Below are positions 10,251 to 57,013 of a stretch of DNA of 64,000 bases, piece after piece. The notes beneath the pieces are model-generated. The model had not been told where the DNA came from, did not search any database, and saw nothing but the letters and a program-made list of their open reading frames with translations. The stretch comes from a phage: sequence record PZ386953.1; one strand, 5' to 3'. The position numbers were made by a program, and so were the translations under genes. How positions within the stretch are numbered: the stretch's first letter is position 1; each line of letters starts with the position of its first letter.

Positions 10251-10253
10251 TTC

Positions 10254-12172: not shown

Positions 12173-12229
12173 CTTAGTCTCTCCTGTTGTATTGTTGGTA
12201 GGTGTATGAATACCTTATAACTCACCTTT

Positions 12230-12796: not shown

Positions 12797-12798
12797 GA

Positions 12799-13490: not shown

Positions 13491-13506
13491 GGCTATCTCC
13501 TTTTTG

Positions 13507-13740: not shown

Positions 13741-13741
13741 A

Positions 13742-14531: not shown

Positions 14532-14546
14532 AAATAACCTCCTCTC

Positions 14547-26349: not shown

Positions 26350-26687
26350 GTTTGTGGAGAAATATAGTTAACTACGTGTGTGGCAATCCAACTCCTGAAG
26401 AGAAGGATGTTGTGATTCACGATTTTACTAAAAGATCTCGTGAAAAAGATCTACTGCTGACAAAGGTGACTGATAAAGATCCTGCAGTAGGGGACTGGGC
26501 AGGTTTTGCGTTTACATCGGACAAATACACCTTTAACAAAGGTGACTATCTTGTTGTGGATTTTAACGAAGACATCGAGGGTGCTGAACCTTACTATCAA
26601 ACCCTTATTGTTGCAGGGTGTGTTAATCTCTCTGCAGGTATGCACAGTTTGATTCTTTTTGAGCTTGACTCTGAAGACCTTGAGTAG
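26346..26687 (+). CDS. hypothetical protein
   Basis: 113-aa ORF. Confidence 0.45.
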   Translation: MSLWRNIVNYVCGNPTPEEKDVVIHDFTKRSREKDLLLTKVTDKDPAVGDWAGFAFTSDKYTFNKGDYLVVDFNEDIEGAEPYYQTLIVAGCVNLSAGMHSLILFELDSEDLE

Positions 26688-26748
26688 TAAGATGTGAGTA
26701 TAAAGGGGAGGCACTCCTCCCCACAAAAACTAAGGAGAGCACCAAACG

Positions 26749-29289: not shown

Positions 29290-29316
29290 GCCCTGCCCGA
29301 AAGGGTGGGGCTTTTT
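29290..29316 (+). terminator. intrinsic terminator (hairpin identical to the one at 39424)
   Basis: GCCCTGCCC-GAAA-GGGTGGGGC then TTTTT; two G-U wobbles make it strand-specific. Confidence 0.75.
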
Positions 29317-39423: not shown

Positions 39424-39451
39424 GCCCTGCCCGAAAGGGTGGGGCATTTTT
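39424..39451 (+). terminator. intrinsic terminator (same hairpin as 29290)
   Basis: GCCCTGCCC-GAAA-GGGTGGGGC then ATTTTTG. Confidence 0.75.
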
Positions 39452-42946: not shown

Positions 42947-43254
42947 TACTTGAAAATTCCTGGCATATCAAGTATAAGGGGGATTTCTAAAATGGATTTC
43001 CTCCTTTTGATATTTCACCGGGCTGGATATTTTAAAATTCTTAGAAAATCAGAAAATGGATCGAAAACTAAAATGTATTTTTCAGAGTAGGCGCGACAAG
43101 CTGAATAACTCATCCTATCGTTTGCACCATATTCCAGGCCACCATTATAGATTTTCCCACACATGCTCACATCCTTCTACCAGAACTTTCCCACTCGCCC
43201 TTGGCCTTTTATGGCAATAATCCAGCCACTATCTTGAAGTTGCGGTACAGCTTT

Positions 43255-43345
43255 CCAAGTACTCGATCTGTTTTTCGTTTCAAAGATTGAATTTTCTGAA
43301 AATTTTTCTCGATAAATTTCCAAGTACTCGATCTGTTTTTCGTTT
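43255..43345. repeat. pair of 26-29 bp direct repeats
   Basis: CCAAGTACTCGATCTGTTTTTCGTTT at about 43255 and 43320, with further GAAAATGGAT-like short repeats around them. Confidence 0.6.
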
Positions 43346-43551
43346 TCTGAATCGGATTTTCTGGAAATCGTTCCAGCTCTCTACCTGAAATTTTTGGGGA
43401 CGAAATCGATTTTTCGTTTTCAGAAATGGATTTTTAAAATTTCTATATGGGAATATTTTATGGGATACTGTTTTATAGGAAATTGTTACGGAGGGTAATT
43501 AGCATGCTAATTAAATTTATTAAATGCGAGGAGTTCTCATTTAGAATTTTG

Positions 43552-43765: not shown

Positions 43766-43962
43766 GATAGGTATATTGTGCCCCCCCTGGCGGGGCCGCT
43801 GTCAACACCTTTTCAAAAAATTTTTCTAACCTGATGCGCTAACCGTTGCAACCTGGCGGGGCCAGCCTGGCAGGACCTAACTGACCAGGTGGGAGAGGGT
43901 GAAATCTTGCAAACCTGGTAGGCCCATGCTGTAGGGTAAACAATTGAAGAGGAGGTACAAAA

Positions 43963-44103
43963 ATGAAAGGTAATGCTACTCACCTGGGAAATGTAGTGAT
44001 TAATGATACAGAAGCGCGGGAACATAAAGAAGAGTACGAAAAAATGGTGGTTAACCTGGCGGGGGCGGCAGGTGGATTCTATCATAAAAATAATTTAAAA
44101 TAA
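43963..44103 (+). CDS. small ORF (46 aa), uncertain
   Basis: Strong SD AGAGGAGG before ATG; lies in a repeat-rich region. Confidence 0.3.
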   Translation: MKGNATHLGNVVINDTEAREHKEEYEKMVVNLAGAAGGFYHKNNLK

Positions 44104-44106
44104 TCG

Positions 44107-44135
44107 TTGACAACAAGGTTAATCATGGTATTATT
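44107..44135 (+). promoter_or_regulatory. sigma70-like promoter
   Basis: TTGACA - 16 bp - TATTAT. Confidence 0.5.
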
Positions 44136-44184
44136 ACCCTACAAGGTGAACAACACCGCACTAACCAGTAAAGAGGATAAAATC

Positions 44185-44382
44185 ATGAACGCATACGGGA
44201 TCAAAGTACGTCGCAACACTCGCCAGGTGGTCACCGATCAAATGGTTTGCCAGGTGGACGTAACCATCAACAACGGGCAAGGCCTTTATAAATTCCGTCG
44301 CGGTCAGAGCTATACCCGGCAACAGCTTAATCGTTGCGCCCTGACAAAAGGACAGATCAACCACTGGTTTAATAAAAAATAA
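44185..44382 (+). CDS. small basic early protein
   Basis: ATG preceded by AAGAGGATAAAA SD; 65 aa. Confidence 0.5.
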   Translation: MNAYGIKVRRNTRQVVTDQMVCQVDVTINNGQGLYKFRRGQSYTRQQLNRCALTKGQINHWFNKK

Positions 44383-44385
44383 GTA

Positions 44386-44414
44386 TTGACATATAGTCCG
44401 ACACCAAATACACT
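44386..44414 (+). promoter_or_regulatory. sigma70-like promoter
   Basis: TTGACA - 17 bp - TACACT. Confidence 0.5.
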
Positions 44415-44446
44415 AAAAGCACAAAAGACACTAAGAGGATAAAATC

Positions 44447-44845
44447 ATGAAAACCACCACCTTTAATTTTGATAATGCGGACTTTTCTTTTTCTGATGTC
44501 AAGAACTGCCGCCGTGATCGTGGATTTTACAAGGCTTATAATCTGGTGGGCCTGGACGATGACAATAATTTGCACGAAGTAGCTGAGATCCGGTATTATG
44601 CCGCCGCCAGCGGGAACACTCACTACTGCGTGTTTTGGATTCACGACAACAAGAACAATAAGTACGGTTATACTGGCGGCAAGGCGAGCGGTCACGGTTA
44701 CGATAAAGCTAACGCAGCACTTGAGAGCGCATTAAATGCTATGGGGATCACTGCCGACGGCTGGATCTACGAAGAAGAGTTTTTGTCGGCACTTGCTGAC
44801 CACCTGGGCTATAAAAAACACATTGTAACATGCGCCCACGAATAA
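44447..44845 (+). CDS. hypothetical early protein
   Basis: 132 aa; SD AAGAGGATAAAA. Confidence 0.5.
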   Translation: MKTTTFNFDNADFSFSDVKNCRRDRGFYKAYNLVGLDDDNNLHEVAEIRYYAAASGNTHYCVFWIHDNKNNKYGYTGGKASGHGYDKANAALESALNAMGITADGWIYEEEFLSALADHLGYKKHIVTCAHE

Positions 44846-44927
44846 AAATCATTGACACGCTGCAAAATTTAAGTAAACTAGACACAAAAGGCGGGAATGT
44901 TTCCCGCCAGCACAAAGGAAAAAGATC

Positions 44928-45323
44928 ATGAATAAGAACGTACGCCGCATCATGAACGAACTGGCAAACGATGAAAAAATTATTGATATGCATTTGGTCA
45001 ACATTTGCCGCCGTTGTGTAACATATAACAACCGCGCCGCAAAAGCGCGTGAGATGAACGCAAAAGGCACCTTAAAGCCCTTTCAGGTGGTTGTAAAATC
45101 TATAACTAGCGCAGCAGGCCAGGCGCAGGACCACAACAACGAGAGCGCTAATATTGATCCGTCTTACGTAATGAAACGGATCCGGACTTGCAAGAATAAA
45201 GAGCAGGTATATAACGTCATAGATTGGCTGGACTCCCTGGGCGATGTGGTTTACAATAGGTTTTCTGCAGCTATCGAGATCCAGCTTGACAGATTGGACG
45301 GGAAAGTACTAAAAACTTATTGA
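44928..45323 (+). CDS. hypothetical early protein
   Basis: 131 aa; preceded by promoter TTGACA and 5'UTR hairpin GGCGGGAA-TGTT-TCCCGCC. Confidence 0.5.
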   Translation: MNKNVRRIMNELANDEKIIDMHLVNICRRCVTYNNRAAKAREMNAKGTLKPFQVVVKSITSAAGQAQDHNNESANIDPSYVMKRIRTCKNKEQVYNVIDWLDSLGDVVYNRFSAAIEIQLDRLDGKVLKTY

Positions 45324-45325
45324 GT

Positions 45326-45370
45326 TTATTTTTAGATGGCCTTGACACCAGGGCCATCAATAAAGTAAAC
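45326..45370 (+). promoter_or_regulatory. conserved 45-bp element, copy 1 (TTGACA held in hairpin loop)
   Basis: TTATTTTTAGATGGCCTTGACACCAGGGCCATCAATAAAGTAAAC; identical copy at 45947, near-identical at 49662. Confidence 0.6.
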
Positions 45371-45403
45371 TAACCACAGTTGAGCGGAAAAGGAGGCTTA
45401 AAG

Positions 45404-45523
45404 ATGAGCACTACACGCCAGCACACAAAGGTAACCATCATCGTTTGCATCATTGGGTACATCCTGGCGCAAATGTTGATGGGTAGCGCCAACGGTGTCG
45501 CAAAATTTTTCTTAAACTTTTAA
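45404..45523 (+). CDS. hydrophobic micropeptide (39 aa)
   Basis: AAGGAGG SD then ATG; sequence MSTTRQHTKVTIIVCIIGYILAQMLMGSANGVAKFFLNF; below the 60-aa ORF cutoff. Confidence 0.35.
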   Translation: MSTTRQHTKVTIIVCIIGYILAQMLMGSANGVAKFFLNF

Positions 45524-45602
45524 TTGACAAGCTAACTTAAATCGATATAATAAGCACATAAACGGGAAAACTTCCCAGAACACACAAAAGGAGAAAAACA
45601 CC

Positions 45603-45944
45603 ATGACTACTATGACCGCCTCAGAAAAAGCTATGCAGATCGCTGAACTGAAAAAACAGATCGCAGACCTTGAGAATAAGATCGATAACTTTGAAATCGA
45701 CGAGGACAAGTACGACGAAAACTATGATGAATGGTTAGACGAGATCTACGGCGAAATTATGATCGGAAACATTTCTTTTCTTCCGTCGCGTATCCTCAAG
45801 GAGCTAGATCCTATCGCTTACCGCTGCGGATTTAGCGACTACATCGACAGCCTGGATATTGAGAACGATGAAGAATACCAGGAATTACAGACAGAGTTAG
45901 AAGAAGCAAAAGAAGAGCTTGCGGAGCTGGAAGAAAACGAGTAA
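45603..45944 (+). CDS. acidic coiled-coil early protein
   Basis: Promoter TTGACA/TATAAT, 5'UTR hairpin GGGAAAACTTCCC, SD AAAGGAG; 113 aa. Confidence 0.5.
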   Translation: MTTMTASEKAMQIAELKKQIADLENKIDNFEIDEDKYDENYDEWLDEIYGEIMIGNISFLPSRILKELDPIAYRCGFSDYIDSLDIENDEEYQELQTELEEAKEELAELEENE

Positions 45945-45946
45945 GC

Positions 45947-45991
45947 TTATTTTTAGATGGCCTTGACACCAGGGCCATCAATAAAGTAAAC
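45947..45991 (+). promoter_or_regulatory. conserved 45-bp element, copy 2
   Basis: Identical to copy 1. Confidence 0.6.
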
Positions 45992-46033
45992 TTTATACTG
46001 TTAACACTGAACGAATGCATAGGAGTTAAAACC

Positions 46034-46279
46034 ATGGCAGCACTAATCACCAAATATTATGCCCCTACCAATACCAAAAGCGCCCGTATCATGGTAAAAG
46101 GCTTCGGACGTAAAAAGGTGTACACCTGGGATTATGCCTTAGACACGGAAGACAACTACACCAACGCAATGACCGATTTTATTAATGAACTAAATAAGCA
46201 GATCTTGACAAGTTATAAAGTGACCGATATTGCTTATATAGGTGAAGGCGGGATCTGTTTTGTAGGCATTGTGAAATAG
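46034..46279 (+). CDS. hypothetical early protein
   Basis: 81 aa; translation initiation region ATAGGAGTTAAAACCATGGC shared with gene at 50624. Confidence 0.5.
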   Translation: MAALITKYYAPTNTKSARIMVKGFGRKKVYTWDYALDTEDNYTNAMTDFINELNKQILTSYKVTDIAYIGEGGICFVGIVK

Positions 46280-46353
46280 TTATTTTTTCGGTGGTCCTGG
46301 TTGCAGGGCCATCTATAAAGATAATTTATTAACACCATGAAAGGAGAAAGTAC

Positions 46354-46707
46354 ATGATCAGCGGGGCAAGTTTTATTATTGGCGCTATTGCTACGGCTTT
46401 AATTGTAAATAAGATCCAGGATAAAAAGGAAAGAGGAAGTACCGCCCTTGCAGAATATCCATTTTGGGCATTCAACGATAACGAAGATTATATTATAAAG
46501 TATAAAAATAAAGAAGGTGACCAAGTAACACCGCGACCGATCCCGGCTTACAAAATGCAGGAAACACTATACCGCCTGAAGGCGGGGGGCGCAAAAATTG
46601 TAGACTTTTGGGGATACGACCACACAGATCAGGAAGTTATAAAGCGCCGTATCCGGGCTATTCAGGCCAATATTGAAGTTAGCAAGGGGGGAATATATGA
46701 AAATTAA
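46354..46707 (+). CDS. early protein with N-terminal TM helix
   Basis: MISGASFIIGAIATALIV; SD AAAGGAG. Confidence 0.5.
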   Translation: MISGASFIIGAIATALIVNKIQDKKERGSTALAEYPFWAFNDNEDYIIKYKNKEGDQVTPRPIPAYKMQETLYRLKAGGAKIVDFWGYDHTDQEVIKRRIRAIQANIEVSKGGIYEN

Positions 46708-46894
46708 TTTCGAGAAAATTGTAAAGCGCCCTCATGATTCCGAAGAGCTGCCAGAACGCCGCCAGCGTAACAATAAACTGAATAAGCCAAAAAGGTTTGG
46801 GAAGATCTGGCGTAATCATTATGATCGTAAATTGCCCGGCCTACTTTTGGAACGTGAACGACAGGCAGAACGATACCGCCATAAAGACAAATAA
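46697..46894 (+). CDS. small basic protein
   Basis: In-frame ATG inside track ORF 46673-46894; Arg/Lys-rich. Confidence 0.4.
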   Translation: MKINFEKIVKRPHDSEELPERRQRNNKLNKPKRFGKIWRNHYDRKLPGLLLERERQAERYRHKDK

Positions 46895-46903
46895 CAACCA
46901 ACT

Positions 46904-46930
46904 CCCCGCCATTGTGCGGGGCTTTTTATT
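46904..46930 (+). terminator. intrinsic terminator
   Basis: CCCCGC-CATTGT-GCGGGG then CTTTTTATTT. Confidence 0.7.
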
Positions 46931-47053
46931 TCTATCCTACGAATAGCGCCCCTGGTTGGCCCTGTAAGCGCCAAAAAGGCCCCCACCTATGCAATCGCCC
47001 CCCTTTAACCTGAAAACATCGCCCATGGCCGTTTCATGGCGTTAAAAATATCA

Positions 47054-47081
47054 TTGACATCGTCAACAGGTTAGCTATACT
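47054..47081 (+). promoter_or_regulatory. sigma70-like promoter
   Basis: TTGACA - 16 bp - TATACT. Confidence 0.55.
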
Positions 47082-47113
47082 AACCACATCAAAGAGAGAA
47101 AGGAGTAAACGCC

Positions 47114-47374
47114 ATGCGTAAATTAAAAAATTTTGATAAAGTTGATGTTATCCTGAATAATTTTTACTACTGCAACAACAAGGCTATTTGGTGGCGTGAT
47201 AGTTCCACCGATAAAGTTAAGGCGCGCTTTCTTCAAGGGCACTGGCAAGGCCGCCCAGTGATTAAAATCATGGGGCAATTGGTAGCTTTCAAAAATTGCC
47301 GCCGTGCTGATGATATCGAAGATATCTTGAACGTTTTACGCTACAACAATTTTAAAAATAGTGTTGACAAGTAA
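47114..47374 (+). CDS. hypothetical early protein
   Basis: 86 aa; SD AAAGGAG. Confidence 0.5.
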   Translation: MRKLKNFDKVDVILNNFYYCNNKAIWWRDSSTDKVKARFLQGHWQGRPVIKIMGQLVAFKNCRRADDIEDILNVLRYNNFKNSVDK

Positions 47375-47391
47375 GATTAAACAAGTATACT
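47364..47391 (+). promoter_or_regulatory. sigma70-like promoter followed by 5'UTR hairpin
   Basis: TTGACA - 16 bp - TATACT; hairpin GGCGGGAAAAATTCCCGCC at about 47402-47420. Confidence 0.55.
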
Positions 47392-47448
47392 TAATCACAT
47401 AGGCGGGAAAAATTCCCGCCACCGCCGAAGAAAATAGGAGAAAATATC

Positions 47449-48072
47449 ATGACTACCGTTAACATTACCGCAGGTTACAATTTATCTTTCGACGTGCTGA
47501 CCGACGAACAAAAAGAAAAAGCCGTTGAAATGGTCCGCGAAAGAGAGGAAAACAGCGGTGATAACTTTTTCGCAGAAAGCGTAATTGAATACTATAAAGA
47601 ATATGTTTTTCCAGAGTATGGCCTTGAAGATACCGAAGTACATTGGTCAGGCTTTTGGTGCCAGGGTGACGGCGCGTCAATCAGTGCTGAAAACGTGGAT
47701 TTAGAAAAATTTTTGCGTAAAGTAAAGGCCCTGACCAAGTTCCGATCAATTCGTCACTTGTTCGGCACAATGCACGATGGCGAGTTATCAGCCAGTGTTG
47801 AACGCGACAAGTACAGCCATTACAGCCATGAAAACACTGTAAGCGGGTACATTGATACCACTTGGCTAGATCTGACCGCCAAACAAGAAAACAAAGTGGA
47901 AGACCTGGAAGAACTGATCACCGAGACGGTACGGGAGCTATCCCGCAAGGTTTACGTAGACCTGGAGGAGGCCTATCTAGAACAGTTCACCGCAGAAAAC
48001 CTGATCGGCCTTATCGAGGCCAATAACTGGCGGTTTGATGTCGATGAATATGGTGAGATGACTTTTTCATAA
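47449..48072 (+). CDS. hypothetical early protein
   Basis: 207 aa; SD ATAGGAGAAAA. Confidence 0.5.
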   Translation: MTTVNITAGYNLSFDVLTDEQKEKAVEMVREREENSGDNFFAESVIEYYKEYVFPEYGLEDTEVHWSGFWCQGDGASISAENVDLEKFLRKVKALTKFRSIRHLFGTMHDGELSASVERDKYSHYSHENTVSGYIDTTWLDLTAKQENKVEDLEELITETVRELSRKVYVDLEEAYLEQFTAENLIGLIEANNWRFDVDEYGEMTFS

Positions 48073-48080
48073 ATAAAGTG

Positions 48081-48108
48081 TTGCAATAACCTAAAAACCT
48101 GCTATATT
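48081..48108 (+). promoter_or_regulatory. sigma70-like promoter
   Basis: TTGCAA - 16 bp - TATATT; 5'UTR hairpin GGGGGCAAGACGTTTGCCCC follows. Confidence 0.45.
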
Positions 48109-48162
48109 AAAACTCAAGGGGGCAAGACGTTTGCCCCAACACAAAACAAAGAGGATAACATC

Positions 48163-48543
48163 ATGAAAAACACTACCAAGGCTATTGACACCGTTATGTT
48201 TAACCTGGTTACATTCCGTGAAGATATGAAAGATCTTCCTCGTGAAACAGTGTGCGACCATATCGAAAACTATCGCAAACTAATCAAAGAGTTGCCTTTA
48301 AAACGTGATCAATATGCGGCTAACGCCATGCTTAATGCCATGATCAAAAAGATGATCCAGTGTGATTTAACCCTGGCCTATGATTATGCAGGCGGTCGTT
48401 TTGCAGTATACAATCAGCCCGTGCCCGGTATGAGCACCACCGAAGAATTGCACGCGCTCAATCTAAAACAAGACGTGTGGGATAGTATGCCTCGCGTGGT
48501 GGTATGGGTAGAAAGCGGAAAGATTTACGGCGATAATTTTTAA
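48163..48543 (+). CDS. hypothetical early protein
   Basis: 126 aa; SD AAGAGGATAACA. Confidence 0.5.
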   Translation: MKNTTKAIDTVMFNLVTFREDMKDLPRETVCDHIENYRKLIKELPLKRDQYAANAMLNAMIKKMIQCDLTLAYDYAGGRFAVYNQPVPGMSTTEELHALNLKQDVWDSMPRVVVWVESGKIYGDNF

Positions 48544-48552
48544 TCAGGTAGC

Positions 48553-48580
48553 AGGCGGCATATTTGCCGCCTTATTGTTA
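48553..48580 (+). terminator. intrinsic terminator (weak T-tract)
   Basis: AGGCGGCA-TATT-TGCCGCCT then TATTGTT. Confidence 0.5.
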
Positions 48581-48607
48581 ATCAGAACTGTAAAAGAGGT
48601 ACATAGA

Positions 48608-48979
48608 ATGGAATTTATTATTTTGGCTGTATTGGTTGCCTTGTTTAACGCCTGGATCGCTGGCAAGATGGGAAGATCCGCCTTTTTATGGTTTATTATA
48701 TCTATTTTCCTGGGGGTGGTTGCAACTATTGTATTGGTTATCCTTGCAATTGTTGACAAGGGGAATAATAGAAAGGGTAAAGTATTTTCAGACCTGTACG
48801 ACGCTCAAACGTTTGTCAACGCCTATTATAGTGATCTTCCAGTCTCCCTACGCTGCAGCCTGGCACAACAGGTTTTTGATGAGGCTAAAACCAGAGATCA
48901 AGCCCATGAGATATGTTTAACTGAGGCGGATCGCCTATTTGAGAGGAATAGAAAATATGTGGGCCAACCGTTTAAATAA
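48608..48979 (+). CDS. small inner-membrane protein (two TM helices)
   Basis: ATG after AAAGAGG SD; MEFIILAVLVALFNAWIAG ... LWFIISIFLGVVATIVLVILAIV. Confidence 0.5.
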   Translation: MEFIILAVLVALFNAWIAGKMGRSAFLWFIISIFLGVVATIVLVILAIVDKGNNRKGKVFSDLYDAQTFVNAYYSDLPVSLRCSLAQQVFDEAKTRDQAHEICLTEADRLFERNRKYVGQPFK

Positions 48980-49089
48980 TGCCACGTTAATTAATCCCTT
49001 TAGTGAAGATTTGAAGCCAGCCGCCTGGCGTGACGGATTCAATAACGAACGCTTTATTTTCAGGCCTGATCTTGAGGAATTTTATAACA

Positions 49090-49215
49090 ATGGATCGAAC
49101 AACAGCGGAGATAATTTTTCTTGTGGTGTGCGTGGTGATGGTACTCCTGGGGGCCATTGTAAACCACGTCACTACTACCAGAAGGAAAGGGGGAGACGAT
49201 GACAACCAAGGATAA
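49090..49215 (+). CDS. hydrophobic micropeptide (41 aa), uncertain
   Basis: Internal Met of track ORF 49030-49215; TM segment IIFLVVCVVMVLLGAIV. Confidence 0.3.
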   Translation: MDRTTAEIIFLVVCVVMVLLGAIVNHVTTTRRKGGDDDNQG

Positions 49216-49318
49216 GCCATGTACCGATAAGGTGCGCCGCGTTATGGTATGGCTTGAGATTATCGCCCTTGAAATATTGCTAGGCGTAGGGATGTACTTT
49301 ATCGCTGTAAGTAACTAA
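49199..49318 (+). CDS. hydrophobic micropeptide (39 aa)
   Basis: GGGGGAG SD; ATGA overlap with upstream stop; TM segment VMVWLEIIALEILLGVGMYFIAV; terminator immediately downstream. Confidence 0.35.
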   Translation: MTTKDKPCTDKVRRVMVWLEIIALEILLGVGMYFIAVSN

Positions 49319-49322
49319 GAAC

Positions 49323-49350
49323 GGCCCCCGATCATGGGGGCCTATCTTTT
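49323..49350 (+). terminator. intrinsic terminator
   Basis: GGCCCCC-GATCAT-GGGGGCC then TATCTTTT. Confidence 0.7.
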
Positions 49351-49457
49351 AAAAAAATTTTTCTTCCGTGGTGTTGCAATCCGATCCGGAATGTGGATAA
49401 TAACAATCAACGGGGAGCTAATCCCCACCACCACAAAAACCAGAAAGGAGAAACAAA

Positions 49458-49658
49458 ATGAGCAACAATATCCGCGTTATTAACTTCAAAAAAGAAGAAA
49501 AAATTGCCGTGCTGATTGACGGTCAAGAAATCTTCAAGGGCGACTATGAAGATCATCAAACGGCGATTAGTATCACTCGCGTGATTGGTTACCATAATTT
49601 CTACCCCCAAGGCGCTGAGGCAGCAGTTAAACGAATCAAAGAGATTGTAGGCCTGTAA
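49458..49658 (+). CDS. hypothetical early protein
   Basis: 66 aa; SD AAAGGAGAAA. Confidence 0.5.
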   Translation: MSNNIRVINFKKEEKIAVLIDGQEIFKGDYEDHQTAISITRVIGYHNFYPQGAEAAVKRIKEIVGL

Positions 49659-49661
49659 AAT

Positions 49662-49706
49662 TTATTTTTAGATGGCCTTGACTTCAGGGCCATCAATAAA
49701 GTAAAT
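49662..49706 (+). promoter_or_regulatory. conserved 45-bp element, copy 3
   Basis: TTATTTTTAGATGGCCTTGACTTCAGGGCCATCAATAAAGTAAAT (3 mismatches to copy 1). Confidence 0.55.
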
Positions 49707-49749
49707 TTAAACCCTGTTAAAATAATCAGTGCAAAAAGGAGTAATGGTC

Positions 49750-50049
49750 ATGTTTATACCCGCCAATAATCTTTATTTCTTTGATGGTCAGATCGTAGAC
49801 GGTGTGGAAGTGGAGATCACTGGGTGCCCTGGTGGTCAGGCTATGACTTTTCGGAATAATGCCTTTGATGATTCTCGTATCGTTATGAGAATGGAAGTTA
49901 CAAAGCTGGACGACAAGAAAACACTCATTGACTATTCCGTGAAAGATCATCCAGACCACCACATGATCTATGGTGATTTGTGCATTGTTGACCGTGACAA
50001 GGTGAGCGGCATTGTGATCGCTATTGTGAACGATGTTTTCTCAAACTAA
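49750..50049 (+). CDS. hypothetical early protein
   Basis: Start chosen 8 nt after AAGGAG SD inside track ORF 49729-50049. Confidence 0.45.
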   Translation: MFIPANNLYFFDGQIVDGVEVEITGCPGGQAMTFRNNAFDDSRIVMRMEVTKLDDKKTLIDYSVKDHPDHHMIYGDLCIVDRDKVSGIVIAIVNDVFSN

Positions 50050-50066
50050 TTTCAGCAGGTGATTTT

Positions 50067-50417
50067 ATGAAAGTTAAATTATATTACCTCAATGAGCTTA
50101 ACCCGCTTGCACAAGTCCACGCCCTGGATAACGCTGTTTATTGTGAAAAGTCTATATACAGTGTTGAGCTTAACGCTATGCGTGAACGCCTTAAAGGCGG
50201 TTACTTTGACATCCATGCTGCAATCAACGGCCTGAATATAGAATTTATCCGCTTACGTAACAGCCGCCAGAATCTGGCAAGAATGGAACAAGATCCGGCC
50301 CACCTTCGTAAGCTGGTTATTGAAAATCATCTGATGTTTAATGCCGATGGTGATTATTACCATTTTCACCGTAAACGCTGGTACCGTAGCGGCAATATAG
50401 GAAAGAATGCAAAATAA
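50067..50417 (+). CDS. hypothetical early protein
   Basis: 116-aa ORF. Confidence 0.5.
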   Translation: MKVKLYYLNELNPLAQVHALDNAVYCEKSIYSVELNAMRERLKGGYFDIHAAINGLNIEFIRLRNSRQNLARMEQDPAHLRKLVIENHLMFNADGDYYHFHRKRWYRSGNIGKNAK

Positions 50418-50452
50418 GGCCCCTGGCAGGGCCTGCAGCGATATAATCACAT

Positions 50453-50486
50453 AAAGGCTATGCGGTTGCATAGCCTTTATTATTTT
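50453..50486 (+). terminator. intrinsic terminator
   Basis: AAAGGCTATGC-GGTT-GCATAGCCTTT then ATTATTTT. Confidence 0.7.
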
Positions 50487-50623
50487 GGCGTTACAGCGGC
50501 CCCCAAGGCGCTTAAAAAATTTTTAAAGAAGTACTTGCATCAAGTCCTACAATATGGATAATAAAGGGTGTCGGGGGGCGGTGAGGCCTCCAATCATTAA
50601 CCGGATAGATAGGAGTTAAAACC

Positions 50624-50908
50624 ATGGCTATTGTTACCGTTGGCGATGTAGTAGAAATGGAAGCCAAATACTTAAAAGCTGGTATGCATATCATACGGAA
50701 TGATCAAGAATTGTTATTAACCATGGTTGAATATAATCCCGGTCAGGATTATCCAAGCATTGACTACTTTTTCCAGTATGTTGATGAAGAATTAAAAGAG
50801 GATGAGGCTTATCAGGGTGAATTTTGTAATTTCTTTTGCTCTGATGAGGTTGTAAAAGTTATCTATCAACCTGGCGTACCTTTCCCGCTGCACGCTATCA
50901 ATAAATAA
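50624..50908 (+). CDS. hypothetical early protein
   Basis: 94 aa; initiation region identical to that of gene 46034. Confidence 0.5.
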   Translation: MAIVTVGDVVEMEAKYLKAGMHIIRNDQELLLTMVEYNPGQDYPSIDYFFQYVDEELKEDEAYQGEFCNFFCSDEVVKVIYQPGVPFPLHAINK

Positions 50909-50964
50909 ACCTGGCGGGGCCGAAAAGGCCCCCCAATTATGAAAATAAAGAGAGGCAAATCATC

Positions 50965-51198
50965 ATGATGGAACAAATTAAACGCGCCGAGGCTATTAAT
51001 GGCAACGTGATCTATTTTGTCAGCAAAAACGAAAAAGGCGTACCCTATGCGGCGGTAATAGTACAGCCTGACGGCGATTATTGGTGCACTGTGTACGGCG
51101 CTTATTCTTTTGGGCGTCCGGTGCATGATAAAATTTTGAAAGTAGCGAACCCTACCGGGAAAAATATTACAGCAGAAAAATTTTTTGAAAATAGTTGA
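50965..51198 (+). CDS. hypothetical early protein
   Basis: 77 aa; SD AAGAGAGG. Confidence 0.5.
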   Translation: MMEQIKRAEAINGNVIYFVSKNEKGVPYAAVIVQPDGDYWCTVYGAYSFGRPVHDKILKVANPTGKNITAEKFFENS

Positions 51199-51274
51199 CA
51201 TGACTATATAAAACTGTAGTATATAAATCAAAGGGGGCAACAAGCCCCACCAACCACAAAGAGGATAAAAAATC

Positions 51275-51454
51275 ATGGCTATTATTGCAAAGACCGAGAT
51301 CGTAGGCTTAGATTCTATTCTCCTCGCATATGAGGAAGCTATAGAAATGTATGTGGTTTCCTATGGTGAGTATATCCGTGAATATGAATCTATTGATCTA
51401 GCTTTTGAATGTTATATTCGCCAGGTTAATAAAGCGTACGATGATTATCGTTAA
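51275..51454 (+). CDS. small acidic protein (59 aa)
   Basis: Promoter TTGACA at about 51195, 5'UTR hairpin GGGGGCAACAAGCCCC, SD AGAGGATAAAAAA; just below ORF cutoff. Confidence 0.4.
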   Translation: MAIIAKTEIVGLDSILLAYEEAIEMYVVSYGEYIREYESIDLAFECYIRQVNKAYDDYR

Positions 51455-51545
51455 AATAGTTTGACAACAAACAACCATCTAACAAAGCATAATACATAAG
51501 GTGGTAGAATGATCCGCCACCCGGAACAAAGAAGAGGTAAACACC

Positions 51546-51791
51546 ATGAAAAGCAATAAAGGTTATAACGGTTACAAAAACAAAACTCATTGGAATGTAA
51601 GCCTTTGGATTAATAACGATGAGTCATTGTACCGGTTGGCCCAAGGATTTATTAACGCTAATGCTAATCGTAATGATGCGGCGCGGGATATGATGCTTTT
51701 TCTGGAGCTAACCGGACAAGATAAGACCCCGGACGGCTTCAAGTACAGCACTACGGCGATCCGTGCCGCGATGGTTGGAATGAAACACTAA
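51546..51791 (+). CDS. hypothetical early protein
   Basis: 81 aa; 5'UTR hairpin GGTGG...CCACC then SD AGAAGAGG. Confidence 0.5.
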   Translation: MKSNKGYNGYKNKTHWNVSLWINNDESLYRLAQGFINANANRNDAARDMMLFLELTGQDKTPDGFKYSTTAIRAAMVGMKH

Positions 51792-51868
51792 AAGCACATA
51801 GCCGCCTTACCCTGGGGCTGTAGTAGCGGCCCCATGAATAAGGTTACTAACAGAAGAGAATAAACACT

Positions 51869-51973
51869 ATGAAACAGAAATTAATCGATGCAGTGATCTT
51901 GGTTATTGCCCTGGGTATTGGCCTGATTGCAACCATGTCTAATATGATCTTGTCTTCCAACGGTATCGGGTGA
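51869..51973 (+). CDS. hydrophobic micropeptide (34 aa)
   Basis: SD AGAAGAGAA; MKQKLIDAVILVIALGIGLIATMSNMILSSNGIG. Confidence 0.3.
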   Translation: MKQKLIDAVILVIALGIGLIATMSNMILSSNGIG

Positions 51974-51982
51974 GGTTGGCAA

Positions 51983-52198
51983 ATGATCACTAACAAAACA
52001 GGCAAAACAGAATTTTTACGCAACTTACAGATCGGCAAGCCTGAGATCTGGTACTGCACTAAAACACCGCGTGACGAAATGAAAGACTTCACCGCCACGC
52101 TGCAACGGGTAAAGATATCTATCACGCAGAAAAAGGCCTTACTAGTGGTGGAAGGGGAGATCCCCCAAACCGTTGTTATAGTTGAGCGTACAGCATAG
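51983..52198 (+). CDS. hypothetical early protein
   Basis: 71-aa ORF. Confidence 0.45.
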   Translation: MITNKTGKTEFLRNLQIGKPEIWYCTKTPRDEMKDFTATLQRVKISITQKKALLVVEGEIPQTVVIVERTA

Positions 52199-52289
52199 TT
52201 TAATTTATACCGATACCCGAAAATTAACCAACAAAGCATAAACAGGCGGTTACCGCCGCCTTAAACGTAGCAGAAAGAGGATAGACACA

Positions 52290-52580
52290 ATGAAAAAGAT
52301 GATCGCAGTGGTTGCCCTGGTTGTTGGACTTAGTGCGCCTGCAATGGCTAATGAGCTGGCAAAAGAGGTTAATCTAACGGATATTCATGCCGTCAATCGA
52401 ATCGGGGTTACTTATCGCTTATGCCTTGCCACTAAAACTTTTAATGACGGTACAACAGAGTACTACGGGTTTGAGGGTATCCGGTGCGGTGAGCTTGCTC
52501 GCGACCTTAAGGAAGATCCAGACCTGGAAGATCTGCCCATCACCGTAAACGGTAAAGCTTACGTAAACCGCCAACAATAA
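52290..52580 (+). CDS. small secreted/periplasmic protein
   Basis: Signal peptide MKKMIAVVALVVGLSAPAMA; SD AGAAAGAGGA; 5'UTR hairpin GGCGGTTACCGCC. Confidence 0.5.
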   Translation: MKKMIAVVALVVGLSAPAMANELAKEVNLTDIHAVNRIGVTYRLCLATKTFNDGTTEYYGFEGIRCGELARDLKEDPDLEDLPITVNGKAYVNRQQ

Positions 52581-52596
52581 GTAAGGGAGATGTAAA

Positions 52597-52788
52597 ATGA
52601 ATACTGAACAAGTTAGAAAGGTATTGGCGGTACTGCGTTATCATAATCATAGAAAGGTCATAGACGATCCTGATTATGTAGATTCAAGCCTGGAAGAAGA
52701 CACGCTACAAGCTATCAGCCATATGCAAGAATTGCTTAAGCGCATGACAGAGAAAAACCGACCGGACTACATAGGGGGTAAAATATGA
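52597..52788 (+). CDS. hypothetical early protein
   Basis: 63 aa; SD AAGGGAGA. Confidence 0.45.
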   Translation: MNTEQVRKVLAVLRYHNHRKVIDDPDYVDSSLEEDTLQAISHMQELLKRMTEKNRPDYIGGKI

Positions 52789-53096
52789 TCGCTATTACGC
52801 CAACCGTTTTAGATTGGTATCGGCAACGCATAGCTCCTCCGCTGGCTATCTTCAAAGATGCGGAATCAAAACAACGCCGGATCTCAATACATGAGATCAT
52901 CAACCTTAACGCTGGAGGCACACCATACCGCCCAGGGCCTGGCCGTGAGATGGACAATACGTTAGCGATCCTGAAGATACGCCGTAAACGGTCCTCCCTT
53001 ACGCTGGACTCCTTACACACAATGCAGTCTCCGTTCCAGGTGACCGGGAAACGGATCGCCAGGTCCTGGACAAAGGCCAATGATCGGACCGTATAA
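52785..53096 (+). CDS. hypothetical early protein
   Basis: 103 aa, ATGA overlap. Confidence 0.45.
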   Translation: MIAITPTVLDWYRQRIAPPLAIFKDAESKQRRISIHEIINLNAGGTPYRPGPGREMDNTLAILKIRRKRSSLTLDSLHTMQSPFQVTGKRIARSWTKANDRTV

Positions 53097-53184
53097 ATAA
53101 AAAGTGCTTTGGTACTGATTTTGGGGGTTGACTTGTTCGGCCCCTTTTGCTATTCTTATTAAACGGGCGGCACTTGGGAACAGG

Positions 53185-53207
53185 GGGAGACAATCACCGG
53201 GCCTGCC
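53185..53207 (-). repeat. inverted copy of the 43.58-kb structured element core
   Basis: GGGAGACAATCACCGGGCCTGCC is the reverse complement of GGCAGGCCCGGTGATTGTCTCCC at about 43583-43605. Confidence 0.55.
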
Positions 53208-53315
53208 TGTCATATAAGAACTATAAAAACCGTTGACATCTGCCAGGTGGTGGGGTAACATTTATCTTGAAGGGGCAAAAGTGCCCACACAACAACCAGA
53301 AGAGAGGAAAACATT

Positions 53316-53588
53316 ATGTCAAGCTGGATTAATCAAGAAGTCGAATCACGTTTTAATGCTATTTGGGATCTCATCGAAAAAGAGGACGGAACATCAAGCC
53401 CTTATCTCAATAATCTTGAATTCCATTTCGTGGAAGCGATGAACGCAGAACATGATCACGAAGGTGGTGCGGATGAGTTCGCTAAAGGGTATGGCTTCAA
53501 CAATGCCAACGAAATGATCGAGGCGGTTGTACTCCAGGCTGAGGAAGATTATCAATTAAAAACGCTTGAATTCTGCCGCCGTAAGTAA
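53316..53588 (+). CDS. hypothetical early protein
   Basis: 90 aa; promoter TTGACA at about 53233, hairpin GGGCAAAAGTGCCC, SD AGAGAGGAAAA. Confidence 0.5.
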   Translation: MSSWINQEVESRFNAIWDLIEKEDGTSSPYLNNLEFHFVEAMNAEHDHEGGADEFAKGYGFNNANEMIEAVVLQAEEDYQLKTLEFCRRK

Positions 53589-53650
53589 TAAGATAATGAC
53601 ACGGGCCAAAAGGCCCACTAAACAAAAACCACATAAAGAGGAAAAACATC

Positions 53651-53914
53651 ATGAAACGTCTTGACCAGCTCAAACTAGTTCAATATATGGCTTATCGTGT
53701 TCTGGAAGTCCAGAAAGGTAGCAAAAAAGAGGTTTGCGAGAAAGCTTATAAGATCTTTACCCGCAAAAAAGATGACTGGATGCTACGCCAGACCAAAAAG
53801 GCTGACATCTTGGGGTACCTGGAAGAAGAGATCCGACTTGAAGAACAAGAAGAGATCCGCCGTAGTGAGGCAGATTATCAGGCAGCTTGGGAAAACTGGA
53901 TGAGCAACAAATAA
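53651..53914 (+). CDS. hypothetical early protein (charged, coiled-coil-like)
   Basis: 87 aa; hairpin GGGCCAAAAGGCCC then SD AAAGAGGAAAAA. Confidence 0.5.
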   Translation: MKRLDQLKLVQYMAYRVLEVQKGSKKEVCEKAYKIFTRKKDDWMLRQTKKADILGYLEEEIRLEEQEEIRRSEADYQAAWENWMSNK

Positions 53915-53980
53915 TACAACAAGTTACATGGTCAGGGGCAATAAAGCCCCTTGATCACATAAAAATTATGCTATCCTTGG

Positions 53981-54009
53981 TTGACAGGGATCGGCAGTTT
54001 TGCTATATT
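53981..54009 (+). promoter_or_regulatory. sigma70-like promoter
   Basis: TTGACA - 17 bp - TATATT. Confidence 0.55.
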
Positions 54010-54059
54010 CTTTTTTGAAGGGAAGTTGTAAGAAAATTAACTGAGAGGTAAAAAACACC

Positions 54060-54479
54060 ATGAACATTAAATCTGATAATCCGGCATATAGCTTTGATAA
54101 CGCTTTTTGTCACGGTCCGGCGGCGAAAGGATTCGAAATCGATGGTAAACTAATTATTGTCAATGTTGACGGGGAAGAGGTTGCAGTATATCCGGTGGCG
54201 GACGTTAAAAGCCGTCTACAATGCCGCATGGATGTTACCGCCTATCAGCTTGATCCGGTCCGCGTAGTTGCCCTGGTCCTGGAGGAAGAGATCAAAGCCA
54301 TGCATCATAGCAACAAGTTTATCGGTGACGCGCAAGATAATATGAAGGTATGCCGCCATAAAGTTAACGAAGTTCTTAAAGAATACGGCTTCAAAGATCT
54401 GATGATCAAGCGTGATGAAAAATTCCGCTATCGTAATGACCTGGCAAATCGAATCTATCAAATATACGAATCATTATAA
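54060..54479 (+). CDS. hypothetical early protein
   Basis: 139 aa; SD GAGAGG. Confidence 0.5.
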   Translation: MNIKSDNPAYSFDNAFCHGPAAKGFEIDGKLIIVNVDGEEVAVYPVADVKSRLQCRMDVTAYQLDPVRVVALVLEEEIKAMHHSNKFIGDAQDNMKVCRHKVNEVLKEYGFKDLMIKRDEKFRYRNDLANRIYQIYESL

Positions 54480-54497
54480 TTTCTTAACTGAACTATC

Positions 54498-54526
54498 AGG
54501 GGCTTTAAAAGGCCCCTTTCTTTTTG
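54498..54526 (+). terminator. intrinsic terminator closing the + strand early block
   Basis: GGGGCTTT-AAAA-GGCCCC then TTTCTTTTT. Confidence 0.7.
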
Positions 54527-55129
54527 TCTGTATTTCTCCTACCACAAACGGCCCCACCTGGCAAGTGGAATAATTGACTAGCCATCAATCCCACACACTG
54601 TACAAATATACATGTAAAATAGCTATTGCATAATCTTTCATTGTGTGGTAGCAGGGCCATTTTTACACGTTTTTCCTTCCAAAATTGCACGTAATGCCGC
54701 TATTGCACAAAATTTAACCTGATGCATATCTTCAGTGTCTTGTCAACAACTAAAAATCTTTATAAGTCATACACTTACACACTCACAAAAGCGTGTTCTA
54801 CGTGAAAAATCGAGTATAACTATAGCCGCCAGATCTCAGAATTTACGTACGTTCACCATTCTATAGTCTGCTAAGTATTTATTCCAACCATAGAATAATG
54901 GAATAGTCAATACCTGCATAAAATAATTATTCGTGTAAACTGCATAACATAAATCAGCTTAGGTGTCAACATTTTTCGTAAACAGCCTGAAATTATCACG
55001 GTGAGTTATCATAAACAGAGAAATCTTTAGTCGTCTAATGTTTACTGTACATTACTATACTTACTGGAATCATTAGATGACTAAGAGAAAGATAAGAAAT
55101 AATTAACAATACAATTATTTTATCTGTAA

Positions 55130-55570
55130 CAATAAGGCAACTATGCAAACGAATGGCATGGCGCGACGGAGTCGCGACATAATATAAAAGCAGTAACCAT
55201 CACCCCCGTGATAGTTTGTCTGCAAACTATTAATCAGATCATAGTTGCCTTGTATTTAGTTAATCATGACATAACAAGCAAGGCAACTATAGATCTGCTA
55301 ATAGTTGCCCTGCTTTTATATTATGTCATATATTATTAACCTGTTAATTGTCAGCTTATTGGCTGTTAGCTTGTCAATTGTTAACTTGTTAATTGTTATC
55401 ATGCAAACGAATGTCATGGCTTATCATCTTTGTGTAAACAGTCAATCATGTAAATGATAAGTATGTGAACAGTTATCCATGTAAACTATTAGACATGTAA
55501 ACAATCAGGTGTGCAAAAGTGTCATAGTATGTCACTATTGTGTCTAAAGTGTCACCAGTATGTCAGACAA
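55130..55570. repeat. iteron-like repeat array (candidate origin / regulatory hub)
   Basis: GGCAACTAT x4 in both orientations incl. a 29-bp palindrome around AGATCT; 20-mer ATGCAAACGAATG(G/T)CATGGC x2; TTAATTGT x4; ATGTAAAC x4; TGTCA x5 phased at 9-11 bp. Confidence 0.6.
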
Positions 55571-56125
55571 GTTTTTCTCCTCTTTGTCAAGTGCTGCATG
55601 AAAAATTTACAAACTGGTATGGTAGCATTTTTGCGGCCCTGTTTACATTCAGCGATGTATGTATAAACCTTGCTGTGTGGGCGTTTAGACGTCTAGACGG
55701 TTGGAAGTCTGCAGGTCAATATCTAATCTATTGGCTGCTAACCATATCCCACACAAATAGTAATAAATATAATTGTTATATGCGTAAACAGTAACTCATG
55801 TTATCAATCCCTGTATGTATCGCCAGTGGTGCGCATAATGGGTATTATGTTAAATTGCCCGTAATGATAACTATTCTCACAATGATAGGTATTCTCATTC
55901 ACCCCCACAAGATAGGTTGCAAATGTTGTGCCACTGTGTGAACGGCCTAGCCTATTAATTTGCCTCACTGCCTTGATATTTGAGAATTGTTATAAGAATG
56001 AGAAGTATTCCCATTTCGTCCGCTTGGCAGCACTCCAGTCGCTACCGGCTCCTGACAGGGCAGCACTCCTGTCGGTCAGGTCAAAATCGTGGTATAACTG
56101 GACCTGTTCAGATATTTCTGGCTGA

Positions 56126-56664
56126 CTCTTCAGGCCTGTGTGGGAAAAGCCGACCCCTCCGGCGGCGGGGAGGGGGTCAATTAAAAAATTTACGGGGTAT
56201 ATGAAGCGCTCTTCAGGTAAGGCAGGTATTATGGGATGAAACCCTCTTCAGGTAATGATATTTGTGGGTGTGATATTTGCTGGAAAGCCAGATATTACGG
56301 GACTCCCGGCGGGGCAGGGGTGGTACAGACAGGGAAAATATGGGGATGTAGTTGGGTAAATTGATCAGACAGGTAGGGTATAGGATATGTTACAAGTATG
56401 TTAAATATGGAGGTTGAATATCTGTAAGATTTGTGTGTAAAATCAAAGACTTAAGTGGTGTTGTGGTATTTTCTATAAATAATTCAAGTTTAATAGGTGA
56501 TATTTGTCCCTATCTACTTTGTGTGGTAAACAGATTCAGATGAGATTGGTTTACGAGTGTATACATAATATACAAATTAAAGATACAAGAAACCCCCTCC
56601 CCCTTCGGCTACCATTCACCTTTTCCTCTGACTGGTACTTAAACACTTATTCAGACTCTTCAGG
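56126..56664. repeat. CTCTTCAGG motif repeats and GC-rich hairpins in ORF-free region
   Basis: CTCTTCAGG at about 56126, 56209, 56245, 56656; inverted repeat GACCCCTCC-GGCGGC-GGGGAGGGGGTC at about 56152-56178. Confidence 0.5.
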
Positions 56665-57013
56665 TTATCACCCATATATCATATGGCAGTGACTGGTGTC
56701 CTCCGGCCCCTCTTTCGTCACCCGTCCGCTTCGCCATGCTAATGCCATAGCCAAATGTTCGGTTGTTCACCATGTTCACTCAGGTGTATCTCCATACCCC
56801 TTCAAACCGAAGAGAACAGAAAACCCGAATTACTCGGTAAAAGAAAAGAGAAGAACTTAATTTTATCAGGATAGGCAAGAATGTCAAGGCATGACTGCTC
56901 ACTAAACAAGCAAACAGTCATGTGTGGAAGGTAAGTGATTGTGGTGGTGGGAAATTTAGTTGAAAGATGTATTGTAGGTGCTCCAGCACTTTAGCCGGGC
57001 AGCTAATTGTGTG

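Follow-up and report, generated by a model that had tools for sequence, protein, structure and literature searches.

Promoter and hairpin cassettes in the small-gene block of an rV5-like phage

Introduction

Among the regulatory modules described in large phages, the “promoter-early stem-loop” (PeSL) cassettes of the T4-type phages RB49/phi1, T4/PST and KVP40/nt-1 combine a strong sigma-70-like promoter and an AT-rich upstream tract with a G/C stem-loop in one of five positions, and carry a Shine-Dalgarno (SD) sequence and a start codon at their 3' end (Arbiol et al. 2010, PMC2839356; Comeau et al. 2014, PMC4122927). They lie in hyperplastic regions beside ORFans and mediate insertions and deletions (indels) between close relatives; further features are sequence conservation over ~100 bp, a terminator or attenuator action of the stem-loop, and mini-circles of excised cassettes (PMC2839356, PMC4122927). 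Judged by its layout, the locus considered here has its closest described counterpart in these cassettes. It is a block of 30 small genes, encoding 34-207 amino acids each, on the + strand at 43963-54479 of a 64,000-nucleotide stretch of DNA (“the window”; sequence record PZ386953.1) from a Vequintavirus, an rV5-like myovirus. In the literature searched, neither promoter-hairpin cassettes nor transcriptomes were described for rV5-like phages; the only pertinent paper was that on the rV5 genome, in which 33 promoters and 20 terminators are listed without any mention of hairpins.

The resemblance to PeSLs extends over several levels. In both, a strong sigma-70-like promoter and an AT-rich tract are combined with an adjacent G/C-rich stem-loop, the SD sequence and start codon close the cassette at its 3' end, and many copies lie beside small genes of unknown function within a variable region. 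Close relatives differ by indels and replacements whose junctions fall in cassettes, including inside the stem-loop. Even the PeSL subclasses find parallels, as stem-loops overlapping the -35 hexamer may be compared with the elements termed class B below, and those downstream of the -10 hexamer with the hairpins termed class A. Six of the nine features that define PeSLs are found in the sequence, the remaining three being the degree of repetition, termination and the mini-circles. The two systems also differ. The present lineage comprises Vequintavirinae and Stephanstirmvirinae and is not T4-like. Whereas PeSL stem-loops have been shown to block transcription, class A hairpins keep a fixed distance of 9-12 nt downstream of the -10 hexamer, inside the transcript and before a T-free leader, and are unlikely terminators. 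Repetition between cassettes is weaker than in PeSLs (0.60 identity) and is high only for class B, of which three copies are 92-98% identical over 49 nt.

The feature itself is genuine and has solid statistical support, and its earlier description, in an initial annotation made from the sequence alone, was too uniform. The block is a well-documented new example of a known phage regulatory cassette and not a new principle, and current concepts are unchanged by these findings. Two of its details are well supported by sequence comparison: 5' hairpins at a fixed distance, common to two subfamilies, and a 49-nt RNA element with covarying pairs and a promoter inside it.

The rV5-like phages are widely used in Escherichia coli phage therapy and biocontrol, and carry 30 or more small, presumably early genes, all of unknown function, that differ from isolate to isolate. 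Because these genes sit in PeSL-like promoter and hairpin cassettes, the cassette mode of genome plasticity would, if the interpretation is true, extend beyond the T4-type phages to a second, unrelated group of large myoviruses. Precise cassette borders would then aid the prediction or engineering of gene content, and the fixed-distance 5' hairpins and the covarying element would be compact candidate parts for the control of mRNA stability in E. coli.

Promoters and the Hairpins behind Them

Promoters of the strict form TTGACA-N15-18-TAnnnT occur 11 times on the + strand of the region, against 0.2 expected from a first-order Markov model (maximum 2 in 200 runs). With weaker -35 hexamers included, 16 of the 30 genes have a recognisable sigma-70 promoter of their own, and the 24 nt upstream of these 16 -35 hexamers contain A/T tracts and are 74% AT, compared with 57% in the region. 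Spacers measure 16-18 bp, where the initial annotation had given 15-17 bp. That annotation had also counted about 25 small genes, most of them preceded by a promoter and hairpin cassette. Open reading frames and their starts give 30 genes, and while the excess of strict promoters bears out part of the statement, fewer genes than claimed have a promoter and only nine cassettes have a hairpin downstream of it.

The hairpins of the region are of three types, which had been lumped into a single uniform cassette although they differ in the T content of the leader, in position and in T-runs: class A hairpins in the 5' untranslated region (5'UTR), the class B repeat of 49 nt that encloses a -35 hexamer, and true terminators. 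Class A is represented by nine cassettes (those of g4, g6, g11, g12, g16, g19, g21, g22 and g28, numbering the genes g1 to g30). Each has a GC-rich stem of 5-8 bp with a loop of 3-5 nt, and the stem starts 9-12 nt, mostly 10 nt, past the -10 hexamer (10, 12, 10, 10, 10, 10, 11, 9 and 11 nt in the order given); perfect hairpins of this kind start at a background rate of 0.002 per nt in the region. Apart from the hairpin of g19, all of them are more stable than shuffled sequences (z -1.7 to -3.4). Behind the stem, the leader is 58% A, 25% C and 5% T (T is 24.5% of the region), and the ACAAAG motif noted earlier does belong to this A/C-rich leader. In eight of the nine, the first 8 nt after the stem contain no T, compared with 5-7 after six terminators. 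All cassettes end in an SD sequence of the AAGAGGA/AGGAG type, 7-9 nt before ATG; the SD sequence AAGAGGATAA singled out previously occurs exactly four times in the region.

Coordinates are on the + strand throughout. Before g4 (44852-44908), TTGACA-16-TAAACT (44852-44879) is followed after 10 nt by GGCGGGAAtgtTTCCCGCC (44890-44908; -14.6 kcal/mol, z -3.4) and a T-free leader. Before g11 (47364-47420), TTGACA-16-TATACT, whose -35 hexamer lies within the end of g10, is followed after 10 nt (ending CACATAG) by GGCGGGAAaaaTTCCCGCC (47402-47420; z -3.35). The hairpin GGCGGGAA-N3-TTCCCGCC of the initial annotation is present exactly at these two places, 44890-44908 and 47402-47420. The g12 cassette (48081-48137) consists of TTGCAA-16-(TG)TATATT, 10 nt and GGGGCAAgacgtTTGCCCC (48119-48137; z -3.26), that of g16 (49374-49426) of TTGCAA-16-GATAAT, 10 nt and GGGGAgctaaTCCCC (49412-49426; z -2.46), and that of g21 (51195-51248) of TTGACA-16-TAGTAT, 11 nt and GGGGCaacaaGCCCC (51234-51248; z -2.75). 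Other spacings and hexamers are found before g22 (51461-51521; TTGACA-18-AAGCAT, 9 nt, GGTGGTaGAatgaTCcGCCACC at 51500-51521, z -2.29) and g28 (53233-53286; TTGACA-17-TAACAT, 11 nt, GGGCAaaagTGCCC at 53273-53286, z -1.84). The hairpin of g6 is weak (45524-45576; TTGACA-16-TATAAT, 12 nt, GGGAAaacTTCCC at 45564-45576, z -1.7), as is the class A assignment of g19 (50536-50591), where a TTGCAT-type -35 hexamer and GATAAT are followed after 10 nt by an imperfect hairpin (50573-50591). The layout is not confined to 43963-54479, since a class A-type cassette is also present in the replication block at 26665-26748, with TTGACT-17-TAAGAT, 11 nt, GGGGAGGcactCCTCCCC and the A/C-rich leader ACAAAAACTAAGGAG ahead of a gene starting at 26749. 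Promoters that have no hairpin lie before g2 (44107-44134; TTGACA-16-TATTAT) and, in similar form, before g3 (44386-44414), g10 (47054-47081) and g30 (53981-54009). Conversely, the intergenic hairpin GGGGCCgaaaaGGCCCC before g20 (50912-50935) has no recognisable promoter, and similar promoterless hairpins precede g23 (51814-51833), g25 (52245-52257) and g29 (53603-53616).

Comparison among 15 genomes indicates that the class A stems are the more constrained parts, with variation in 17% of stem columns, 48% of loop columns and 27% of flanking columns (Fisher tests on variable columns: stem versus loop p = 5e-5, stem versus flank p = 0.04). The g6 stem is invariant in 13 distinct relatives, the g16 hairpin keeps its stem while loop and leader vary, and the g19 hairpin is variable; the hairpins before g20, g23, g25 and g29 likewise keep their stems and vary in their loops. 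Before the orthologue of g12, three lineages have three unrelated hairpin sequences in the same layout. Relatives of g12 in IMG/VR amount to five loci, too few for covariation, and hairpin replacement is visible among them. A search of IMG/VR with the pattern GGCGGGAA-N3-5-TTCCCGCC was uninformative, as this is a generic GC palindrome and the matches listed were unrelated contigs.

Phages phi92 and ESCO32 of the Stephanstirmvirinae have an analogous small-gene block in which TTGACA-16/17-TAnnnT is followed by nTAnCACATAG, a GC hairpin, a purine-rich leader and an SD sequence. Perfect hairpins start 11-13 nt after the -10 hexamer at nine of 23 promoter candidates in phi92, and 9-14 nt after it at 11 of 24 in ESCO32; the background density of such starts is ~0.002 per nt. 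Together with the three hairpins of the g12 orthologues, this layout shows that the position of the hairpin is conserved and its sequence is not. In phi92, the interval 6500-14700 holds at least 12 near-identical promoter and hairpin cassettes (GGCGGGAAatggTTTCCCGCC or GGGCGGCAatagTGCCGCTC), with up to 84% identity among themselves, which are more alike mutually than to the Vequintavirus cassettes before orthologous genes; this suggests that cassettes may be homogenised within that genome.

The third type of hairpin has a different anatomy. Six intrinsic-terminator-like hairpins are situated between a stop codon and the promoter that follows, one with its T-run after g9 (46904-46921) and the others at 48553-48572, 49323-49342, 50451-50480, 53123-53145 and 54498-54517. 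A GC hairpin with a directly adjoining U-tract is thus present in these six and absent in class A and class B. Elsewhere in the window, the terminator GCCCTGCCCGAAAGGGTGGGGCTTTTT at 29290-29316 has a second copy at 39424-39450, 26/27 identical and behind a different gene, which agrees with the recurrence reported initially. The report of identical initiation regions also holds: between 46005-46038 (g7) and 50595-50628 (g19), stretches that run from the SD sequence to ATGGC, 20 nt are identical, the 20-mer ATAGGAGTTAAAACCATGGC being found at 46019 and 50609 (0 expected) before two genes with visibly unrelated products. A 19-nt SD and start region, AAGAGGATAAAATCATGAA, occurs at 44171-44189 (g2), identically at 44433-44451 (g3) and with 95% identity at 48149-48167 (g12). 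The most frequent SD sequences are AAGAGGA, of the GAGG type (13/30 in 43963-54479), and TAAGGAGA(C), of the GGAG type (17/30 in 17800-43000); the ratio of GAGG to GGAG types, 13:10 in the small-gene block and 6:17 in the replication block, does not differ significantly (Fisher p = 0.07).

A Repeated RNA Element Enclosing a Promoter

Class B represents a quite different arrangement, in which a 49-nt repeat starts at the stop codon of the upstream gene and folds into two helices of ~10 bp separated by a 2x3 internal loop (-20 to -24 kcal/mol, z -5.7 to -8.1). The -35 hexamer TTGACA lies in its apical part and the -10 hexamer TAAACT in its lower helix. Of four copies, the first (45323-45371) begins at the g4 stop codon and serves g5, with TTGACA at 45342 and a folding energy of -24.0 kcal/mol (z -8.1; -16.3 on the - strand). 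The second (45944-45992; z -5.7) begins at the g6 stop codon and serves g7, and the fourth (49659-49707; z -6.7) lies directly after the g16 stop codon and serves g17. The third copy, at the g7 stop codon (46278-46326; -22.0 kcal/mol, z -5.8; -8.1 on the - strand), is 71% identical to the first and has lost the -35 hexamer (CTGGTT) while keeping the two-helix fold.

An alignment of 27 distinct copies from 16 Vequintavirus sequences (15 genomes and one short contig) has 98% of its cells paired, and four pairs of the lower helix are changed on both sides. When the pairing partner is slid by 1-3 columns as a control, pairing falls to 35-56% and the covariation is gone. The fold is also asymmetric between strands, with -22 to -24 kcal/mol on the + strand and -8 to -16 kcal/mol on the - strand; because several pairs are G-U, the reverse strand folds much worse. 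The covariation, the G-U strand asymmetry and the retention of the fold in the copy without a -35 hexamer all point to a function of the element as + strand RNA. As a repeated imperfect palindrome at gene 3' ends, class B resembles the REP/BIME elements of E. coli, which are likewise repeated imperfect palindromes at gene 3' ends and can protect the upstream mRNA. Unlike them, it is confined to Vequintavirus: 121 records of Vequintavirus type, some of which bear the label Campylobacter or Shigella phage, contain it at about three places each, and it has no match in 5,426 E. coli genomes.

Cassette Shuffling among Relatives

Comparison of the window with 14 Vequintavirus genomes reveals about ten indel or replacement events in which whole genes are deleted, inserted or replaced, nearly all of them within 50000-54500. 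In nom, I29, Gotham and RudolfGeigy, g22 is missing and its promoter, hairpin and leader are joined to g23, with the junction in the shared leader and start AGAAGAG-AA-AACA-ATGAAA. Two phages have an extra gene before g29, with leader repeats on both sides and the junction in the SD sequence and leader, and two phages lack g30 together with its promoter, the junction lying between the hairpin at 53937 and the similar terminator at 54498 so that one hairpin remains. In NHEP1 and JEP1, g21-g25 are replaced, and the left border falls in the promoter of g21, at its -35 hexamer (51200).

Overall, 17 of 19 breakpoints are intergenic or within 15 nt of a gene edge, a zone that makes up 30% of the region (binomial p ~1e-7). 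These breakpoints and the exchange of hairpins before g12 agree with the modular, recombination-driven assembly proposed initially; the comparison supports, and does not prove, recombination at regulatory modules.

Proposed Roles of the Hairpins

In an interpretation of moderate confidence, the region is a hyperplastic, PeSL-like block of small-gene cassettes, each with its own regulatory front end, and the class A hairpins are 5'-proximal protectors of the mRNA. From the consensus sigma-70 promoters and their AT-rich upstream tracts, we infer that these are host-transcribed early genes, whose promoters would be fired by host RNA polymerase soon after infection. E. coli RNA polymerase usually starts 6-8 nt past the -10 hexamer, with a preference for a purine that follows a pyrimidine, and the CACA step of CACATAG would supply a start A at position 6 or 8. 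As the class A stem lies 9-12 nt past the -10 hexamer, it would be placed ~3-6 nt from the mRNA 5' end (+3 to +6). There it would hinder 5'-end-dependent decay, through access or scanning by RppH and RNase E, and would keep the unstructured leader and SD sequence free whichever gene follows, allowing strong ribosome loading. With no U-tract behind the stem, class A hairpins would not terminate transcription. Class B is envisaged as folding in read-through RNA of the upstream gene, where it would serve in 3' protection or processing, with its DNA acting at the same time as the next promoter. Sufficient homology for the recombination of whole cassettes would come from the short conserved leaders and stems.

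The fixed distance of 9-12 nt behind the -10 hexamer makes stabilisation of mRNA by the hairpins plausible. In E. coli, a stem-loop very near the 5' end slows 5'-end-dependent decay. Such stabilising 5' stem-loops in the ompA and papA 5'UTRs are said to have been described by Emory et al. 1992, Bouvet & Belasco 1992 and Arnold et al. 1998, all cited in the review PMC3997798. Comparable cases are the leader of T7 gene 10 and engineered 5' hairpins. Class A shares with the ompA and papA structures a short stable hairpin a few nt from the predicted 5' end, followed by an unstructured leader and a strong SD sequence; it differs in that its start site is a predicted one, with 3-6 nt perhaps unpaired depending on the A used.

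Several observations weigh against this interpretation. Full 5'-end protection has a limit of 2-4 unpaired nt, and a start at the first CA step leaves 5-6 nt, which may be too many. The hairpin is dispensable, as seven promoters have none downstream and phage Av-05 has none before its g12 orthologue. That of g19 folds no better than shuffled sequences (z 0.1). Compensatory changes in class A are few, most stem variation consisting of single mismatches; an A-T to G-C change in the g12 stem of I29 and nom, seen by eye, was counted automatically as a one-sided A-T to G-T change only. SD and start repeats of 19-34 nt exist, but whole cassettes average only 0.60 identity in pairs (0.53 when shuffled, and 0.66 in phi92), which makes them far less repetitive than PeSLs with their reported conservation over ~100 bp. 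The 19 breakpoints do not represent independent events, and breakpoints at gene edges are also expected from selection for intact genes after random recombination. Finally, expression data for the rV5-like group, as well as start-site, timing and half-life data, were not found in the literature searched, so that “early” and “5'-proximal” are here terms of promoter geometry alone.

Other explanations account for parts of these observations. Since PeSL stem-loops lower the expression of a downstream lacZ about as much as rrnB T1 does (PMC2839356), the stem-loops could be attenuators or terminators of transcription from the upstream cassette, leaving each gene driven mainly by its own promoter. 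This would suit class B, which starts exactly at upstream stop codons and is annotated as a terminator in phage Murica, and the promoterless hairpins before g20, g23, g25 and g29. It is nevertheless unlikely, because class A hairpins lie downstream of their own promoters, whose transcripts would stop too, because nearly all lack T residues behind the stem in a region that holds six canonical T-run terminators, and because the tracts of class B, T upstream and A downstream, are in the wrong order whichever strand is considered. Also quite unlikely is the idea, raised in the initial annotation, that the hairpins are RNase III sites at which, as in the early region of T7, cleavage of read-through transcripts yields stable monocistronic mRNAs. 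The enzyme requires a duplex of about two helical turns (~20 bp), which class A, with its stems of 5-8 bp, is far too short to provide. Only class B (10 + 10 bp with a 2x3 loop) provides it, and there the idea is possible: the element, an intergenic hairpin within a block of small early-type genes, appears to be selected as + strand RNA and has the general shape of T7 RNase III sites. It departs from those sites in containing a promoter and in a lower helix that is almost purely A-U, which coincides with the UP-like tract and the -10 hexamer, parts that are constrained in any case.

It is most improbable that the palindromes act as DNA, either as binding sites of a phage or host regulator for shutting early promoters or as targets of site-specific recombination that moves cassettes. 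The arms of class B do flank the -35 hexamer, the junctions of cassette gain and loss fall inside stem-loops in the g30 event, and Arbiol et al. kept site-specific recombination as a possibility for PeSLs (PMC4122927). The G-U pairs, however, and the large difference in folding energy between the strands favour RNA over duplex DNA; class A stem sequences differ across cassettes and lineages at a constant position, which does not fit a single DNA-binding protein; and Pfam and PHROG scans of the 30 genes found no recombinase in the block. A very unlikely account would have the hairpins as functionless leftovers of terminators or repeats carried along in cassette recombination. The many promoters without a hairpin, the one hairpin no better than shuffles, and the likeness of some intergenic hairpins to halves of duplicated terminators (the g30 event) are in keeping with it; the spacing fixed in nine cassettes and repeated in another subfamily, the greater conservation of stems than of loops and flanks, the different hairpins at the same place before g12 orthologues, and the class B covariation are not. 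The occurrence of one module in both Vequintavirinae and Stephanstirmvirinae despite differing hairpin sequences also admits, as a very improbable reading, that the CACATAG start region and the GC hairpin 9-12 nt past the -10 hexamer form a recognition tag for a dedicated phage or host factor. Such a factor, for example an RNA-binding protein, a nuclease or an enzyme that modifies 5' ends, would time the shut-off or protection of the whole early gene set, and class B would be the 3' counterpart of the tag.

Three further candidates were rejected. Class A hairpins as antisense terminators would require a T-run on the - strand, which is real in g4 only, the conserved flank being CTATGTG and not a U-tract. 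A GAAAA loop at 50922 recalls lambda boxB and N-type antitermination, and the loops differ in every cassette. N4-type hairpin promoters do not apply, as the hairpins lie downstream of ordinary sigma-70 promoters.

The Small Genes and Their Setting

The genes of the block start at 43963 (g1), 44185 (g2), 44447 (g3), 44928 (g4), 45404 (g5), 45603 (g6), 46034 (g7), 46354 (g8), 46697 (g9), 47114 (g10), 47449 (g11), 48163 (g12), 48608 (g13), 48957 (g14), 49199 (g15), 49458 (g16), 49750 (g17), 50067 (g18), 50624 (g19), 50965 (g20), 51275 (g21), 51546 (g22), 51869 (g23), 51983 (g24), 52290 (g25), 52597 (g26), 52785 (g27), 53316 (g28), 53651 (g29) and 54060 (g30). All 30 match PHROG families, each of unknown function, and only g9 (T7 gp1.1-like) and g22 (DUF7249) match Pfam. 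Seven genes are tightly coupled to the preceding gene.

With the region as query, ~300 phage records match the block, the best being Escherichia phage JLBYU08 (97.9% identity over 99% of the query). Annotation transferred from JLBYU08 to the window gives tail-fibre genes, then a - strand block, then the replication block (~17800-43000, + strand), which is separated from the small-gene block by a non-coding stretch of 850 nt. Within this stretch, at 43249-43434, are three direct repeats of ~47 nt each at a spacing of 65-74 nt (TTTCCAAGTACTCGATCTGTTTTTCGTTT...), which are iteron-like and could mark an origin or a regulatory region. The 128 nt upstream of g1 (43835-43962) are GC-rich, with a folding energy of -40 kcal/mol and several CCWGG motifs, and no recognisable promoter was found in them; a motif akin to their AACCTGGCGGGGCC appears again at 50909.

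Downstream of the block, ~2.5 kb (54530-57000) contain no genes. Because 55566-56023 matches, at 94.5%, a 459-bp repeat_region (1-459) marked as the terminal repeat in the record of phage Gotham, the window probably contains one physical end of the genome, ~1.5 kb past g30, and the block would be transcribed towards it. The gene-free 2.5 kb around this match are rich in short direct and inverted repeats, among them a perfect 18-nt inverted repeat (55176-55193 / 55310-55327). A comparison of the whole window with Rfam at gathering thresholds matched no family, and a tRNA scan of the window found none.

More than 20 “Campylobacter phage” records (MG0656xx) share 92-97% identity with the block of this E. 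coli Vequintavirus, which looks like mislabelling or contamination. Parts of 47500-51790 have 69-74% nucleotide identity with the ~350-kb jumbo phages 121Q, PBECO4 and Sharanji, and likewise with phi92-like phages, which suggests that small genes may be exchanged among very different phage groups.

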